A stretch of 64,000 nucleotides of DNA from Bythopirellula sp. (GTDB lineage: Bacteria > Planctomycetota > Planctomycetia > Pirellulales > Lacipirellulaceae): contig OZ244170.1 in NCBI GenBank assembly GCA_965216565.1, forward strand, positions 4,768,001-4,832,000. The letters run 5' to 3'. The notes beneath the pieces were generated by a model. It was given only the letters and a program-made list of their open reading frames with translations. It was not told where the DNA came from and did no database searches. Made by a program: the position numbers and the translations under genes. How positions within the stretch are numbered: position 1 is the first letter of the stretch; each line of letters starts with the position of its first letter. Positions 11,307 to 34,228 of the stretch are shown here, one piece after another.

Positions 11307-11698
11307 TGCTTTGGCATCATGGAAGAACCACAAAGCACTCGAATTCGACGGGCGCAGGTAATCTCTCACGGACGACGAGGCGTTGCAAGAATGCAACATC
11401 GAGGTTGAGGCTTTTCACCGTAATACGGAAAACCTCGGCCCTTTTATAGGCTGATATACGGCGCAGCAAGGCTGCTCGATCGTTTGGCCCACAACTTGCT
11501 TCGAATACGGCGTAGAGTGCCAGACTCATCGGTTCGATGGTGTTGTCTCAACAGTATCGCCGCCTGTGTACTCTAACCGTTGGCATTTGTGCCGAGAGAA
11601 GTCAGGCCTAATAGCCCGGGTGGATCCCCGACTAGGGAATTCAAGTTCGAGCTGTTAGTGCCAAGGCGTTATCCGATCGATTTAGACAGAGGTATTCG

Positions 11699-14122
11699 AT
11701 GACGAATCAAGATTCTGGTATAGGTCGCAGTGACGTAATGTATCCTGCTGTACTAAGTAATGGCGACGCATCCAATGCGATGGTCCCTGCCCAACCGTAT
11801 CCAGCGATGCCCATGCCTGGGTTTGGTGGCGCTGGACCCCGTGGGCCTGAGATTGTTACAGGTAGTATCAATCAAACTTGGTTCCTCAATTCACTCCGAC
11901 GAAAATGGCTGCCTGCGTTGCTGCTAGGTTCACTGGCATCGCTGTGCATGTTCGGCTTTCTTTGGTGGTTGTTCCCCGAGTCTTCCTCAGTGACTGCCTA
12001 CCTGCGTGTGAAGGCCGTTGAGCCGGAAACACTGTTCGACCAAAAGAAGGTCATCAACCCCAAAGAGTACGAGATCTTCCAGCAAACGCAGTTGGCGTTG
12101 TTCAAATCGCACTTTGTGTTGAATGCCGCTTTAAACCGCAGCGAGATCTCTCAGCTCGATGCGGTTGTAAAAGAACAGCCCTACGAGCTGAAATGGCTTT
12201 CCGACGAAATTCGCGTCTCCTTCCCCGGTGAAGGTGAAATTATGGAGGTTCGCTTCGATGGCGAAGAGGACCCCGAGGAGATTATGAAGATCGTCGACGC
12301 GGTTATCGAATCTTACACTTTCGAAGTGATTCACAAGGAGCGTACACGCTCCAGCGAAACACGCGAGAGCATGGAAAAGCTGCACAAACAGTTGAAGGAA
12401 GAGTTGGAAGAGAAGCACGATCGCTACTTGACGTTGTCCAAAGAGTTGGATTCCTCGACAGGTGCCACCGAAAGTGCCGTGCTGAGTATGTTGGCCAGCG
12501 ATGTGCGTATGATCCAACAGCAGATCATCGAGAAGAAGCAAGAGCTGATTGACTTGGAAGTCACCAAACAGTTGGCCGCTCAAAATGCTAACAGCCCGAC
12601 GGCTTTGGAAGCTGCCATTCAGGAACAGTTGGATCAAGATCCTATGTTTCAGAATTTCCAGCAGGAAGAATATGCATACACCCAGCAGCTAATGCAGCTT
12701 CAGGCGATCACCAAAGGTAATCGCAAGTCGCCCGAGCTCAAGCGTCTGCAATCTCAGTTGAGCTCTCTACGGTCGCAAATTCAGGAGTACCGTATTACGA
12801 AAACAGCCGAGCTTCGTGATCGGCTCAAGAATGCTCCGAACGAGATGCTGCAAAGCGTGATGATGGAGTACATGCTACGTCGGCAGTCCGTCGGCAACGA
12901 TATCGCTGAGCTCGAAGCGAAGTACGAAGACAAGATGGCCGAAGTAGAACGAAAAGGCCAAACCTCCGGTAAGCTCGCGATCTTGAATACGGAAATTGAG
13001 CAGCTTTCGGAAGTAGCCCAGACTATGGAATTGAAGATTCGTGGCTGGTCACTCGACGAAAAAGCTGGCCAAGACCGTGTACGGATTCTTCAAAAGGCAA
13101 CGCCTCAGGAGAAGATCAACACCATCGAGCGATACACCATCGTCACGATCGGTGCTCTGACAGCCTTCTGTGTCACTTGTTTCGGAATCGCTTTGTTAGA
13201 ATTCCAACGTCGCCGGCTTAATGGCCCGACCGACATCGATGAAGGCTTAGGAATTCGCGTTCTTGGTGTCCTGCCATCGGTTTCATCGCGGAAAGCGATG
13301 GTGCCAGGCAGCCCGATTGCAGCTCAGCTCTCTGAGTCGATCGACAGCGTCCGAGCCGCATTGATGCATGATTCCACATTTCAGGCACGGCAAGTGGTAC
13401 TGATCACTAGCCCGGCTTCGATGGAAGGCTGCACAACAGTCGCTAGCCACTTGGCACTAAGTCTCACTCGGGCTGGCCGTCGGACTTTGCTGATTGATGG
13501 TGACTTGCGAGAGCCGGCTCTGCATAAGCTCTTCGGCATGCCATTGGAAGATGGTGTGAGTGAAGTCTTGCGTTCGGATATTGATGTAACGGACGCCATT
13601 CGGCCCACGAGCACCGAAGGCCTATGGCTGATGACCGCTGGTCAGTGCGATATGGGTGCTATCCACGCATTGGCGACGGAACAACTGCAGCCGATTTTCG
13701 AGAAGCTACGTGCTGAGTTCGATTTTGTGATTATCGATGGTGCCCCGCTACTGGGTATGTCCGATTCGATATCGATCGGCCAGCATGTTGACGGAGCGAT
13801 CTTGACGCTACTCCGCGATCAGACCGAGATTCGCAAAGTGCTTCAATCCTCCGAGTTACTGAAAGCGATGGGTATCCGACTCTTCGGAGCGGTTGTCAAC
13901 GGCGTGCGACAAAAGGCGGACCGCCGCGTGGCTCGTCTGCATCGTTCCGCAGCCAGACCCCCTCGTCCGCAGCTTCCAGAAAAGGCCGAGACTCCGGCTA
14001 AAGCTCAGCAACCTGTAGCGGCTCGCACTCCAGCAGCCCCTCAGCAACCTGAGGTCAGCGATGAGCTGGAAATTGATGTGTCGGACATCGAAGAAATCGA
14101 CGTAAAAGATTTCGAACTGTAG
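11699..14122 (+). CDS. Polysaccharide co-polymerase / Wzc-type tyrosine autokinase homolog with a degenerate kinase domain
   Basis: Two TM helices flank a periplasmic coiled coil. The C-terminal CpsD/CapB-like domain has LLIDGDLR and VIIDGAP, but Walker A reads EGCTT. Confidence 0.9.
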   Translation: MTNQDSGIGRSDVMYPAVLSNGDASNAMVPAQPYPAMPMPGFGGAGPRGPEIVTGSINQTWFLNSLRRKWLPALLLGSLASLCMFGFLWWLFPESSSVTAYLRVKAVEPETLFDQKKVINPKEYEIFQQTQLALFKSHFVLNAALNRSEISQLDAVVKEQPYELKWLSDEIRVSFPGEGEIMEVRFDGEEDPEEIMKIVDAVIESYTFEVIHKERTRSSETRESMEKLHKQLKEELEEKHDRYLTLSKELDSSTGATESAVLSMLASDVRMIQQQIIEKKQELIDLEVTKQLAAQNANSPTALEAAIQEQLDQDPMFQNFQQEEYAYTQQLMQLQAITKGNRKSPELKRLQSQLSSLRSQIQEYRITKTAELRDRLKNAPNEMLQSVMMEYMLRRQSVGNDIAELEAKYEDKMAEVERKGQTSGKLAILNTEIEQLSEVAQTMELKIRGWSLDEKAGQDRVRILQKATPQEKINTIERYTIVTIGALTAFCVTCFGIALLEFQRRRLNGPTDIDEGLGIRVLGVLPSVSSRKAMVPGSPIAAQLSESIDSVRAALMHDSTFQARQVVLITSPASMEGCTTVASHLALSLTRAGRRTLLIDGDLREPALHKLFGMPLEDGVSEVLRSDIDVTDAIRPTSTEGLWLMTAGQCDMGAIHALATEQLQPIFEKLRAEFDFVIIDGAPLLGMSDSISIGQHVDGAILTLLRDQTEIRKVLQSSELLKAMGIRLFGAVVNGVRQKADRRVARLHRSAARPPRPQLPEKAETPAKAQQPVAARTPAAPQQPEVSDELEIDVSDIEEIDVKDFEL

Positions 14123-30526: not shown

Positions 30527-30565
30527 AAAAACCACCTGCTAGCTCTGGGGGAACTAGCAGGTGGC
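30527..30565 (-). terminator. Rho-independent terminator of the 30630-30869 gene, with a C-rich loop
   Basis: Minus strand reads CCACCTGCTAG-TTCCCCCAGAG-CTAGCAGGTGG-TTTTT. Confidence 0.85.
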
Positions 30566-30629
30566 TAGGCTTGTCCGTGTCCCGCACACACTCACACGGA
30601 CGGCTTATTGGGTAAGGAAATTCAGGTGC

Positions 30630-30869
30630 TTACCAAACGTAGACACCAGTTCCGTAGTACACAGGGGCCGGAGCGGCGTAGACCACTGGGGTACGATACA
30701 CAGGGCCTGCTACTACGCGTCGTGCAACGGGGTATGGAGGCAAGACGGTTCGAGCGACAGCCCGACGAACAGGTGCTCGGCGGCGAATCACCCAGGCGTC
30801 GGCGTCTTGAGCCGCGGTGAAACTGAACATTCCGATAACTGCCAGCGAGAGTAGTACTTTCTTAAACAT
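30630..30869 (-). CDS. Small secreted Arg/Pro/Val/Tyr-rich protein (79 aa)
   Basis: RBS AAGGAG; signal peptide MFKKVLLSLAVIGMFSFTAAQDADA; mature part has PVY/PVV repeats and ends GVYVW. It has its own promoter and terminator. Confidence 0.85.
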   Translation of the reverse strand: MFKKVLLSLAVIGMFSFTAAQDADAWVIRRRAPVRRAVARTVLPPYPVARRVVAGPVYRTPVVYAAPAPVYYGTGVYVW

Positions 30870-30947
30870 GATGGGTCTCCTTTTCTTGTCCCCCAGCGGC
30901 GATTGGACGTGTGGTTTGTTGATGGGCCGCTTCTGAGTAAGAACTAA

Positions 30948-30963
30948 TGCATTCACCGTGCCA
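30948..30963 (-). promoter_or_regulatory. Sigma-54 (-24/-12) promoter
   Basis: Minus strand TGGCACGGTGAATGCA matches TGGCACG-N4-(T)TGCA with GG-N10-GC spacing, about 80 nt upstream of the start codon. Confidence 0.8.
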
Positions 30964-31125
30964 ATTGATCTAGAATGGACTGTAAATTGTTTGATAATAA
31001 TAAGTTACGGCCATTTTTGCGTCTCTGGCGATTGGGCAATTGGCTCGGAATGACACCATTATGAGCACACTTGATTCCAATAATGAGTCGTCGATTATGC
31101 GGCGCTAAGCAAGGGGTGGGGGGCC

Positions 31126-31182
31126 AAAGAAAAAGGCTCCCTGCTTTGCATTTTGGGGGGGAGGCATGCAAAACAGGAAGCC
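31126..31182 (-). terminator. Rho-independent terminator of the Gly/Tyr-rich gene, with a C-rich loop
   Basis: Minus strand GGCTTCCTGTTTTGCAT-GCCTCCCCCCCAAA-ATGCAAAGCAGGGAGCC-TTTTTCTTT; 17-bp stem with G-U pairs. Confidence 0.85.
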
Positions 31183-31209
31183 AGGGGGCAAATCTTGCTT
31201 GAGATGGCA

Positions 31210-31491
31210 TTAGAAGCCGAAGGACAGCGAGATCCCACTTCCGCCACGATAATAGCGGGAACCACCATAGTAGCCAGGTCCACCGTGGTAGTAGCTAGGG
31301 CCACCGTAGTAGCGAGCACTACGGTAGTAGCTGGGTCCACCGCGATAATAACCGCCACCGCCGTAGTAGGCTCCATAGCCGCCGCCATAGCCACCGCCGC
31401 GATAACACCGGCCCGCCTGGGCTTCTGAGCCATTGCTGACGATGAATGACGCACCAACAACTGCCAGAACGAGTAACATCTTTCGCATCAT
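31210..31491 (-). CDS. Small secreted Gly/Tyr-rich protein (93 aa)
   Basis: RBS AAGGAG; signal peptide ending EAQA; YYxGGPxY repeats; ends ISLSFGF. Confidence 0.87.
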   Translation of the reverse strand: MMRKMLLVLAVVGASFIVSNGSEAQAGRCYRGGGYGGGYGAYYGGGGYYRGGPSYYRSARYYGGPSYYHGGPGYYGGSRYYRGGSGISLSFGF

Positions 31492-31590
31492 ATCTGTCTC
31501 CTTGGAGCCAATCGGGCTCCGCTTACTTTGGGGAGGGGAATCTACGGCCAGCTGCTGTCAATTCCCTGCTCGCTAGCCAGGGGACTTAAT

Positions 31591-31606
31591 TGCACGACCC
31601 GTGCCA
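31591..31606 (-). promoter_or_regulatory. Sigma-54 (-24/-12) promoter
   Basis: Minus strand TGGCACGGGTCGTGCA, GG-N10-GC, about 100 nt upstream of the start codon. Confidence 0.8.
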
Positions 31607-31875
31607 GTCTTGTCAGAAAATCTCGTAAGACACTGATACATAGGTCTTTAGGACGAATCTGATGCCAAGCTAGCCTTGATCGGGAATATGAATAATGCCC
31701 TCGCCGTGACGACAAGTGTGGTCAATTGGGCCACGCTTCGAGAGGTGTAAACTATTGCCTGAAAAGGGTTTAAGCTTTTCTGGTTGTCGTCGTGCTATTG
31801 GATACTGAAGAGCTAACGGTGGGTGAAAGCGGTTGGAATAGGGCGAGATCAAGGAATACCAATGCCGCCAACTTT

Positions 31876-31891
31876 CGGCACGGGCTTTGCA
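31876..31891 (+). promoter_or_regulatory. Sigma-54 (-24/-12) promoter, divergent
   Basis: CGGCACGGGCTTTGCA, near-consensus YGGCACG-N4-TTGCA. Confidence 0.8.
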
Positions 31892-31901
31892 TTATTTACA
31901 A

Positions 31902-32150
31902 GCAGAGCCGACAGGCAGTGCAGATTCCATTTGAAGAGGCAAACGACGATGGGGTCGGAACACAGAAGAGGTAGCACTGGGGTCGGACACAAAGAGGCAG
32001 AAGCAGAGAGGCCCTTAACTCTATAAATGACAACAACATCTGACGACTATTCCCTCCCCATTAGTCGCTTTATGTCGCTGTCAAAAGGGTCTAAGCCACG
32101 CAGGCGAGTCAGGGTGCTAGACGGAGAACCTTGGCTCGCCTGTTGCTTTT
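31902..32150 (+). ncRNA. Candidate sigma-54-dependent structured small RNA (~250 nt)
   Basis: Bracketed by a promoter and a terminator. Contains TGGGGTCGGA(A)CACA repeats, four AGAGG motifs and a three-segment hairpin (32009-32092) with loop TTCCCTCCCCAT. No convincing CDS. Confidence 0.6.
32101..32150 (+). terminator. Terminator hairpin closing the candidate sRNA
   Basis: CAGGCGAGTCAGGGT (32101-32115) pairs with ACCTTGGCTCGCCTG (32128-32142), 15 bp with 2 G-U pairs, followed by TTGCTTTT. Confidence 0.75.
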
Positions 32151-32404
32151 GAAGTGTATTAGAATCACGCAGGTGTTCGATTCCGATACAGTCAGTTCTG
32201 CCCAGGCGTCAATTTGGCACGCTGGATGGGAGGCTCTAAAAAAAATTCTGGCTCCAAAGCTCGCGGCGTTCTGCTGTGAAAATAGGTTGGATTCCCACCT
32301 AAAATCGTGCAACTACTCTCGTGATGAGTGGTTTAATAAAATGTGCGAGCATCGCGATCCCTCAGGTCCTTCACCCTCCATTATTTCTAGGGCATCCTAA
32401 AAGC

Positions 32405-34228
32405 ATGGCTAGACCGGCATTTGAAACTCGCGGTATTCGGCCCTGGTTGGTGATTCCTTTCAATTGGGCCTTGTTCGCTGTTTTTACGTCCGGCTTCCAA
32501 TCGTCCATTGCAGCGGAACCACAAACTTCCGGTCAAAGTAACGATCACACATACGAGCAGATCATCGAGCGAATTGATCAGCTCATCGAGCAAGGTTGGC
32601 TAGACAACGACCTCAGGCCTTCTAAAGAAGCCAGCGATGCCGAGTGGTGTCGGCGAGTTTATCTTGATGTCATAGGGCGGGTACCAACAGTCAAAGAACT
32701 GCGCACCTACGTTTCGCAACGAGGGCTCGATAAACGACGCGCATTGGTCGATCGGTTGCTGGGTAGCCAGTACAGCGAGGAATACGTTCGCCATTGGACT
32801 AGCTATTGGACCAATGCATTAATTGGACGGACCGGTGGTCGCGAGCGTCGCTCGATCACCAATCGCCCGTCGATGGAAAGCTATCTCAGTGAATCACTCG
32901 CCGAGAACAAGCCTTACGACGTCCTCGTCGAGGAACTGCTGACCGCCACTGGCGGGGCCTACCCCGAAGCAGAGGACTTCAACGGAGCAGTTAACTTCTT
33001 GGTCGAAAAGATGGACGAGAACGGCGTCCAAGCCACGGCCAAGACGGCAGAAATTTTTCTCGGCACCGCAGTGCAGTGTACCCAGTGCCACAATCATCCG
33101 TTTAACGAGTACCGTCAGAATCAGTTTTGGGAACTCAATGCTTTCTTCCGTCAAACGCGCGTAGCACGCGAGCGGGACGATGACGATAACCGCCGACTTG
33201 GCAGCTTGGTGAATGTCAATTTTGCAGGCGAAGGACGAAGTTCCATATCCGACGATCGCCGCGAGATCTTCTTGGAGATGCGAAACGGCAAGCTAGTCGA
33301 TTCCGAGCAGGCCGCTCAACTCGAAGCCCCCCTTTACTACGAACTCCGTAATGGCCAGGTGCGTGTCGCTTATCCCGTGTTTGTCGACGGCACCACTCTC
33401 AAAGAAGTGCTTGAAGAGCGAGATTCCCCCTACGGCAACAGTGGCGTGCTGGATCACGTCGACCGTCGAGCGGAGCTGGCCAGGCTGGTTGTTTCCGATC
33501 GGCAATTCGATCGAGCATTGGTCAACCGCTTGTGGGCCTACTTTTTTGGGCATGGGTTTACCAAACCCTTCGACGACATGGGTCCTCACAACCCCGAGTC
33601 GCATCCCGAGTTGATCGAGGAATTGGGTTTAGCGTTTCGCAATTCAGCCTTCGACCTGAAATCCGCTATTCGCTGGATCGTACTGAGCCGCCCTTATGCT
33701 TTGACGAGCCGCTATTCCCGTGGCAACCAAGCCGACGAACCTACCGAGGGCGTTACGCCACAGTTCAGTCGCTTTTATGTACGACAGATGCAGCCCGAGC
33801 AGCTTTATGAATCGTTACTGGTGGCAACAGCTGCGGAAGCCACGGTCGATGCGGAGCGTCGCGAGGGGATGAAGGATCGCTGGTTGCGGCAGTTCTCGAC
33901 TGCATTCGGAACAGACGACAATTCTGAGTCGTCCAGTTTCAATGGCTCGATTACCCAAGTCCTAACGATGATGAATGGCGACTTGATCGAACGGGCCTGC
34001 AGCACCGGAAACGGAAGTTTTTTAGATCGCGTTGCCAATGACAGTAGCCTTTCGAATCGAGAGAAGATTCAACACTTGTACCAGGCCGGACTGTCTCGGT
34101 TGCCTTCCAAAGAAGAGACAAATCTTTGCAATCAGCTCTTGGTCTCACGTCGTGGCGACGTGGTAGGCAGTTTGCAAGACATTTGGTGGGCGGTGCTTAA
34201 TAGTAACGAGTTTATTTTGATCCATTGA
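32405..34228 (+). CDS. DUF1549/DUF1553 (PSCyt2/PSD1) domain protein
   Basis: WCRRVYLDVIGRVPT, NKPYD, FLGTAVQCTQCHNHPF, VNRLWAYFFGHG and WAVLNSNEF. Start uncertain. Confidence 0.92.
   Translation: MARPAFETRGIRPWLVIPFNWALFAVFTSGFQSSIAAEPQTSGQSNDHTYEQIIERIDQLIEQGWLDNDLRPSKEASDAEWCRRVYLDVIGRVPTVKELRTYVSQRGLDKRRALVDRLLGSQYSEEYVRHWTSYWTNALIGRTGGRERRSITNRPSMESYLSESLAENKPYDVLVEELLTATGGAYPEAEDFNGAVNFLVEKMDENGVQATAKTAEIFLGTAVQCTQCHNHPFNEYRQNQFWELNAFFRQTRVARERDDDDNRRLGSLVNVNFAGEGRSSISDDRREIFLEMRNGKLVDSEQAAQLEAPLYYELRNGQVRVAYPVFVDGTTLKEVLEERDSPYGNSGVLDHVDRRAELARLVVSDRQFDRALVNRLWAYFFGHGFTKPFDDMGPHNPESHPELIEELGLAFRNSAFDLKSAIRWIVLSRPYALTSRYSRGNQADEPTEGVTPQFSRFYVRQMQPEQLYESLLVATAAEATVDAERREGMKDRWLRQFSTAFGTDDNSESSSFNGSITQVLTMMNGDLIERACSTGNGSFLDRVANDSSLSNREKIQHLYQAGLSRLPSKEETNLCNQLLVSRRGDVVGSLQDIWWAVLNSNEFILIH

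Follow-up and report, generated by a model that had tools for sequence, protein, structure and literature searches.

The 64,000-nucleotide (nt) stretch of Bythopirellula sp. DNA considered here (contig OZ244170.1, positions 4,768,001 to 4,832,000; "the window") contains a compact cluster with three promoters of the sigma-54 type, one of which heads a predicted non-coding RNA of about 250 nt (31902-32150, + strand). This window RNA is the important and conserved part of the cluster, kept across most of the order Pirellulales. With a second predicted small RNA (sRNA) gene, called the partner here, it constitutes an order-wide pair of complementary RNA genes that was previously uncatalogued. The window RNA is probably a multi-site sponge, which would be induced through sigma-54, capture a translation-repressing partner sRNA and thereby free the messages of pilM and of surface proteins. 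The promoter, the terminator, the conservation, the complementarity between the two RNAs and the target-like motifs can all be read from the DNA itself, and the proposed function is deduced from them.

The ends of the window RNA are inferred from its promoter and terminator. The promoter is a GG-N10-GC element of the -24/-12 type (31875-31891, +), which scores 8/9 on the simple consensus scale of 0 to 9 by which all sigma-54 sites were graded. At the other end lies a long 3' hairpin with a U-rich tail (32093-32150, +) that resembles an intrinsic terminator (z-score -4.7); the RNA as a whole folds with a z-score of -3.0. Homologues were collected from the DNA upstream of orthologues of the neighbouring DUF1549/DUF1553 gene (32405-34228, +), the constant downstream neighbour of the RNA, which serves as context and whose regulation by the RNA is not implied. 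Of 58 homologues with a located terminator, 43 were analysed, after removal of nine duplicates, four near-duplicates, one sequence containing a run of N and one that was too diverged. The terminator hairpin changes on both sides at 8/14 pairs, and a second hairpin with a C-rich, anti-Shine-Dalgarno-like loop (32044-32067, +; loop present in 22/43 homologues) does so at 6/6 stem pairs. The joint figure of 14/20 was equalled in 0/500 shuffles, a contrast that kinship among the sequences inflates. The 5' half of the RNA is conserved in sequence and carries repeated purine-rich words. A small protein-coding gene within the RNA was ruled out, as an in-frame ATG occurs in just 7/43 homologues and no start or frame is conserved.

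Conservation extends to the surroundings of the RNA. Among the 73 loci with at least 900 nt of upstream DNA, at least nine of which are the same genome taken twice, a site of 7-9/9 precedes the DUF1549 orthologue in 59 (duplicates included). The sigma-54 site, a stretch that can pair with the partner's core and a 36-bp palindrome are found together at 54 of these loci, are all missing from 13 and occur in mixed combinations at six, in a count whose palindrome matrix had been derived from the positive loci. A covariance model, for which 23 copies served as input, matches 51/61 relatives; two of these matches are the partner's opposite strand or a fragment, and the training sequences are among the rest. 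Rfam gave 0 gathering-level matches in the window and chance-level ones for the RNA region, and a search against plasmids gave no match. Four genomes of one small-genome clade have no core, and their DUF1549 loci are devoid of promoter, RNA and palindrome; rpoN is kept in them. One locus (L081) carries two tandem copies of the sigma-54 RNA, about 740 and 980 nt before the DUF1549 orthologue, each headed by a 9/9 promoter. Expanded homologues of 480-525 nt with 8-12 complementary stretches also exist (L041:479-1003; L047), and the number of complementary sites varies widely between families.

When the genome was scanned with the conserved block of the window RNA, a single further intergenic copy turned up at C1:4663440, antisense to a terminator. 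On the transcribed strand this copy is the core GGCCUCUUCUCUGUUCCGGCCCCG of the predicted partner gene (C1:4663309-4663477, L105:1435-1603, +), which lies 136 kb from the window RNA beside a suhB-like gene and comprises a sigma-70-type promoter, the 24-nt core and a terminator. The core is identical in 40/40 fetched loci, which were picked by a 19-nt match (a 41st match was a sponge locus), and runs into the intrinsic terminator. A TGGACA-type, sigma-70-like promoter with a spacing of 16-17 nt was found at 34 of the 40 loci and an inositol-monophosphatase gene at 36. In an unbiased search, the core occurred with at most one mismatch in 198/301 genomes of the order; the reversed control gave one match. 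By family, it is present in 52/52 genomes of the window's own family, Lacipirellulaceae, in 0/52 of another, and in 31/52 and 27/51 of two others. A relaxed core pattern was found in 0/5 genomes that lack the core. A phylum-wide draw recovered the core in 3/3 other genomes of the order, 1/25 others of the class and 1/272 of the remainder, the last with two mismatches. The partner has no Rfam match above chance level. It was ruled out as a 6S RNA by the absence of an RF00013 match in the genome, predicted lengths of 99-202 nt and the lack of a conserved rod of about 180 nt.

The conserved words of the window RNA are reverse complements of the partner's 24-nt core. Four regions of the RNA are complementary to it: the main antisense site (31950-31973, +), which is identical to the perfect complement at 19/24 positions; a second, split site (31979-31998, +) within the conserved alignment block, which pairs with both ends of the core and loops out its middle; and two short extra complements to the core's 5' part (31933-31940 and 32007-32013, both +). 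Of the 30 6-mers most enriched in the 43 homologues, 20 correspond to parts of the core's complement, exactly or with wobble, and ten come from the terminator, the C-rich loop or flanks. Exact complementary stretches of at least 7 nt average 3.9 per RNA, with mismatched sites counted twice, vs 0.58 in shuffles; sense-strand matches to the core total only six over all 43. The duplex of window RNA and core is predicted at -41.1 kcal/mol, vs -25.2 +/- 2.7 for 100 shuffles (the best reaching -31.4), and every homologue attains -34.9 kcal/mol or better (median -42.3). Conserved complementarity to the seed of another sRNA, which is a criterion for a sponge, is therefore present. Hfq was not found in the genome, and RNase III is encoded there.

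Candidate messenger RNA (mRNA) targets of the partner were sought before gene starts that came from a simple caller made for this analysis (4222 genes; leader set 3785), and the leader statistics therefore carry start-site errors. The 8-mer GGAACAGA of the core's complement occurs 15 times in the 35 nt before the 3785 start codons, vs 3.5 expected (rank 17), and its reverse complement 0 times; related words precede the start codons of 32 genes. Five candidates were compared across orthologues. For pilM, the first gene of its cluster, the leader was read in 50 of the 58 genomes that have it; 32/50 keep a 9-mer of the complement, exact or with wobble, over the ribosome-binding site within unconserved flanks, vs 23/3785 genes (0.6%) overall. 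For a secreted protein of 457 amino acids, which is just 35-49% identical across the genus, the site is kept in 19 of the 22 readable loci (of 24), compared with 114/3785 (3%) for that looser pattern. As a class, the 38 genes headed by sigma-54 sites show only a weak shift in predicted pairing (mean -16.4 vs -14.7 kcal/mol, p 0.04).

Several observations speak against the sponge reading. Both RNAs are known here as sequences, and their pairing is inferred. Compensatory changes between them were not seen; variation in the core is very rare, and the single variant is still wobble-paired. Only 26 of the 79 substitutions in the main site keep the pairing (C>U 19, A>G 7) and 53 break a pair; as proof of pairing, the wobble bias is weak. 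The mean of 3.9 stretches contains the double counting mentioned above, and five short homologues score 0. In folding predictions, the partner's 5' end covers the seed in 26/34 predicted full-length copies, despite unrelated 5' sequences, and opening the seed costs a median of 10.2 kcal/mol, or 2.1 without the 5' part. Because of this cover, the gain from co-folding the full-length RNAs (-12.8) falls within the tail of the shuffles, the best of 100 of which reaches -16.9 (mean -3.7). The joint loss of core, RNA and palindrome concerns a single clade, and hence one event, in incomplete genomes. On the target side, the pilM site is mostly a family-level feature (26/30 in the family vs 6/20 outside it), and three of five candidates are poorly conserved: pilT (10/50), the sigma-54 activator gene at C1:4412906 (10/50) and an Rrf2 gene (1/19), all of which were rejected as conserved targets. 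Finally, the genome encodes 12 CsrA paralogues, which could bind the GGA within the target motifs.

The induction of the window RNA may depend on DNA just behind its terminator. There, a tandem pair of 17-bp palindromes of the TGT-N11-ACA type forms a 36-bp palindrome (32155-32190), a candidate downstream enhancer or operator. It is unique in the genome at 31.3 bits, with the next site at 17.7 (the window site having been left out of training), and follows the terminator at 5-7 nt in 39/42 loci. The TGT-N11-ACA form fits the sites of Fis-type activators, and the tandem palindromes co-occur with the sigma-54 promoter as expected of the enhancer (upstream activating sequence) of such an activator. 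Downstream of the palindrome, before the DUF1549 gene, no further sigma-54 promoter is conserved; since none follows it, the palindrome may be a downstream enhancer for the window RNA. Alternatively, it may be the operator of the DUF1549 operon. An RNA hairpin was also considered for it and gave a weak signal (484/714 cells paired vs 468 +/- 8 in column shuffles, 39/1000 of which were as high), so that a DNA site is preferred. The sigma-54 activator domain has 19 matches in the genome, 16 of them strong. No strong palindrome site precedes any of these 16 activator genes, and no autoregulatory palindrome was seen before the activator gene at C1:4412906 in 50 orthologues. The latter (C1:4412906-4414282) is a candidate for the cognate activator by its distribution alone: it is present in 55/61 relatives and was not found, at the same cut-off, in the one genome searched of the family without both RNAs.

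The proposed circuit would operate as follows. The window RNA would be turned on by an enhancer-binding ATPase, which may sit at the palindrome downstream of the terminator. The partner's sigma-70-type promoter would yield a precursor that hides its seed under its 5' end and may be a conserved, self-locked form of the sRNA; one copy (locus L139) is little more than seed and terminator. As the 5' end covers the seed, processing or strand displacement is probably needed. Once free, the seed would pair with GGAACAGAG-type sites at ribosome-binding sites and repress translation. The sponge would outcompete these mRNA sites, its duplex with the partner being longer and reaching into the base of the partner's terminator stem; RNase III may then destroy the paired RNAs. 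The most far-reaching form of this scheme is unlikely to hold in all its parts. It describes an Hfq-independent, order-wide two-RNA switch, in which the self-locked, ultraconserved sRNA controls whether the type IV pilus assembly operon and other surface proteins are translated, while the multi-site sponge, with its enhancer located past its own terminator, would neutralise this master sRNA and, by opening the partner's terminator, antiterminate the next gene as well.

That next gene raises the alternative that survives best, although it too is improbable as the main role: the partner might be the attenuator leader of the gene behind it, and the window RNA a trans-acting antiterminator. Such an action could coexist with sponging. 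The gene encodes a conserved protein of 246 amino acids (C1:4663547-4664287, L105:1673-2410, +) without a Pfam or NCBIfam match; its structural model is a galactose-mutarotase-like beta-sandwich (mean pLDDT confidence score 92.7, TM similarity score about 0.56-0.58), and its C-terminal PL motif is invariant. It follows the partner on the same strand in 35/40 loci, at a median of 61 nt past the U-run and at 21-48 nt in 13/35, which leaves little room for a separate promoter. Moreover, the last 5 nt of the core are constant and serve as the 5' arm at the base of the terminator, and the three matching G of the window RNA's main site are invariant in 43/43. As the window RNA pairs into this base, it could bind the nascent leader, open the terminator and allow read-through. 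Against this, no homologue of the 246-amino-acid gene was found behind the partner in 5/40 loci, many short sites miss the terminator arm, and binding would probably have to take place while about 40 nt are transcribed. Nor would this reading explain why the complement is retained at pilM and the 457-amino-acid gene.

A reversal of control, in which the window RNA acts mainly on mRNAs through its C-rich loop and the partner sets a threshold or destroys it, has only a small chance of being correct. The loop is exposed on a covarying stem, and a matching G-rich word stands before the start codon of 34 genes. This word peaks at the ordinary Shine-Dalgarno position, however, and is therefore probably a variant of the ribosome-binding site; furthermore, the loop is limited to about half of the homologues, whereas antisense sites occur in all.

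There is an even slimmer prospect that the window RNA is a protein sponge of the CsrB/RsmZ type, the GGA repeats of which titrate a CsrA paralogue, with the pilM site being a CsrA site. The number of CsrA paralogues would suit this idea, as would the GGAAC words that often stand in hairpin loops, terminator loops included, and the overlap of GGA with the ribosome-binding site in targets. Yet the RNA holds only three GGA and one ANGGA, and A is the rarest base two positions before GGA in the homologues (37/218), AC being the next two bases after GGA in 73. The main site has lost its GGA in several homologues that keep the rest of it, the most repeated word is without GGA, and an invariant complement in a separate gene would remain unexplained. 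Neither the many ANGGA in loops nor the Rfam match by which the CsrB/RsmZ families are recognised was found. Three of the 12 CsrA paralogues are long fusions of 246-266 amino acids, and one paralogue (C1:2169969) has a sigma-54 site.

The initial annotation had described three GG-N10-GC promoters, each heading a short unit with its own terminator, and this holds. Besides that of the window RNA, the promoters are those of two small genes on the opposite strand (31591-31607, - and 30948-30964, -); all three were found with the correct spacing and score 8/9, and the three terminator hairpins fold better than shuffles (z-scores -5.3, -3.5 and -4.7). They are the only matches to YGGCAC-N6-TGCW in the window. 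The annotation's statement that no comparable site was found in other intergenic regions of the window was too strong, since one more intergenic 8/9 site lies at 11484-11500 (+), 215 nt before a gene for 807 amino acids that starts at 11699, and another (32131-32147) falls within the terminator of the window RNA. It also overlooked the second RNA gene and the palindrome just past 32150. The absence of an enhancer-binding ATPase from the window was borne out (0 of the 19 activator-domain matches), and rpoN, whose presence had been made a condition of the model beforehand, is encoded in the 5.2-Mb genome, outside the cluster, together with the strong activators elsewhere. A genome-wide scan for sigma-54 sites gave a divided answer. 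The bare YGGCAC-N6-TGCW pattern is near background (91 vs 76-86 for seven other spacings), whereas intergenic sites of 8-9/9 are enriched (52 vs 11-20 for four controls with shifted spacing), so that about 35 real promoters are expected. Elsewhere in the genome, a second three-site cluster lies at C1 1.049 Mb, and C1:1.044-1.056 Mb is a dense sigma-54 island with several 8-9/9 sites, in which an activator gene at 1052898 and a gene like those for small heat-shock proteins are located. Other genes headed by sigma-54 sites resemble groES, groEL, dnaK and genes for small heat-shock and general-stress proteins, the names being read off the sequences. For general stress genes, a sigma-54 promoter has been proposed, as mentioned in the accessible part of a study of stress in Rhodopirellula (PMC2754498).

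The two remaining units of the cluster encode small proteins that open with signal-peptide-like segments, as judged by eye from the sequence and not by a predictor. One is a Gly/Tyr/Arg-rich protein of 93 amino acids (31210-31491, -; terminator 31128-31182, -), and the other an Arg/Pro/Val-rich protein of 79 amino acids (30630-30869, -; terminator 30527-30564, -), which belongs to a family-restricted group. Neither matches a Pfam or NCBIfam family, and all hits in atlas searches scored below 0.9 (the best for the 93-amino-acid protein being 0.89) and are leads only. The C-terminus of both kinds is a short strand-like segment whose last residue is aromatic, Phe in the 93-amino-acid protein. Such ends recall outer-membrane sorting signals, which for these proteins is a resemblance only. 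Homologues of the 79-amino-acid protein occur in 19/61 genomes of the family, with a sigma-54 site of at least 7/9 at 13 of their 23 loci, and usually stand in tandem with a Gly/Tyr-rich partner that bears its own site; homologues of the 93-amino-acid protein adjoin the 79-amino-acid gene in other genera too. RNA-like pairing was found within 1.5 kb upstream in only 4 of the 23 loci, and an unrelated gene lies directly upstream of the RNA in 5/9 genus loci. The mini-proteins are likely separately transcribed members of the sigma-54 regulon that are located here in some lineages. The leader of the 93-amino-acid gene holds the same C-rich word as the loop of the window RNA (31533-31541, -); genome-wide, no 8-mers rank above this word and its complement in the region 36-100 nt before genes, and the two probably represent a repeat element. 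Two further small secreted proteins rich in Gly, Arg, His and Tyr are encoded at C1:3872698-3873045 (-), with a 9/9 sigma-54 site, and at C1:4423561-4423785 (-), with a C-terminus resembling that of the 79-amino-acid family.

Of what was first proposed, sigma-54 control in trans is thus supported, as are the regulatory RNA and the two small secreted proteins, and of the expected synteny across Pirellulales, the RNA, its promoter and the palindrome are kept order-wide, but the adjacency of the protein pair is not. It is accordingly very improbable that the three units form one co-induced module for surface or stress functions, with the RNA acting in support of the two proteins, despite their common promoter type, their adjacency here, in 4/9 other genus loci and in two genomes of another genus, and the possibility that a single enhancer reaches all three promoters, because the protein pair is confined to part of one family, is absent from most genomes with the RNA and often unlinked to it, and because the leaders of the two small genes, at ranks 854 and 1014 of 4222, are not supported as targets of the partner.

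The sponge reading, in turn, yields a complete and testable circuit from sequence: an inducible promoter, a candidate enhancer, a sponge, a partner with a 24-nt seed, and named targets that include the first gene of the pilM cluster. Planctomycetes of this kind are common surface colonisers in water and sediments, according to the accessible text of PMC8303584. If the reading is true, it would offer an initial entry point to the switching of pili and surface proteins in planctomycetes. The sponges CrfA and QrrX were found by Hfq pull-downs, as stated in the accessible parts of PMC12559287 and PMC9732341; a deeply conserved multi-site sponge without Hfq would extend this class. No description of a base-pairing RNA circuit in Pirellulales was found in the literature within reach, subscription journals being mostly beyond the search. 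Three 19-nt strings of the partner were likewise not found in the texts of papers; catalogues in supplements or subscription papers could list either RNA.

Among known systems, sponges of the CsrB/CsrC, RsmX/Y/Z and CrcZ type combine a repeated short purine-rich motif, partly in loops, with an RNA of about 250 nt and an activator-dependent promoter, and the window RNA is alike in these respects. Unlike CsrB and RsmZ, it shows no ANGGA bias, few GGA and no Rfam match, and its repeats are complementary to another RNA gene; the CsrA motif and distribution used for this comparison are those given in the accessible part of PMC13443453. The Rhodopirellula-1 motif (PMC2864571) is likewise a predicted RNA motif of planctomycetes. 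It is listed in the accessible part of that report as cis-regulatory and as also present in Proteobacteria, and the few alignment rows compared by eye show neither the core nor its complement. In Campylobacter jejuni, CJnc230 and CJnc170 (PMC11187230) similarly combine an RpoN-dependent sRNA with a second sRNA, the two having opposing effects on a surface appendage. According to the abstract, which mentions no sponge role, CJnc230 arises by processing of an mRNA and is a direct repressor of mRNAs.

In its predicted action, the window RNA resembles QrrX and CrfA, the latter being the sponge of the sRNAs SisA-D in Caulobacter crescentus. As described in the accessible part of PMC12559287, CrfA is, like the predicted sponge, transcribed as a unit of its own and induced under certain conditions, and it frees a regulon by covering the site through which an abundant repressing sRNA binds mRNAs; its pairing is Hfq-mediated, with one sponge acting on four sibling sRNAs, whereas here Hfq was not found. 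The window RNA further differs from CrfA in its sigma-54 promoter, in matching a single partner at several sites and in a duplex of about 20 bp; sequence kinship of the two was checked through Rfam alone. In Vibrio, it is the RNAs made from sigma-54 promoters that are the targets of a sponge, while here the sigma-54 RNA is the predicted sponge itself. The sponge of Vibrio cholerae, QrrX, which acts on Qrr1-4, depends on a LysR-type activator, needs Hfq and promotes decay by RNase E, according to the accessible part of PMC9732341, and the window RNA has a promoter of the sigma-54 type. The same source shows QrrX to have its own transcription activator and to switch lifestyle through the inactivation of sRNAs, as is proposed here for the window RNA.

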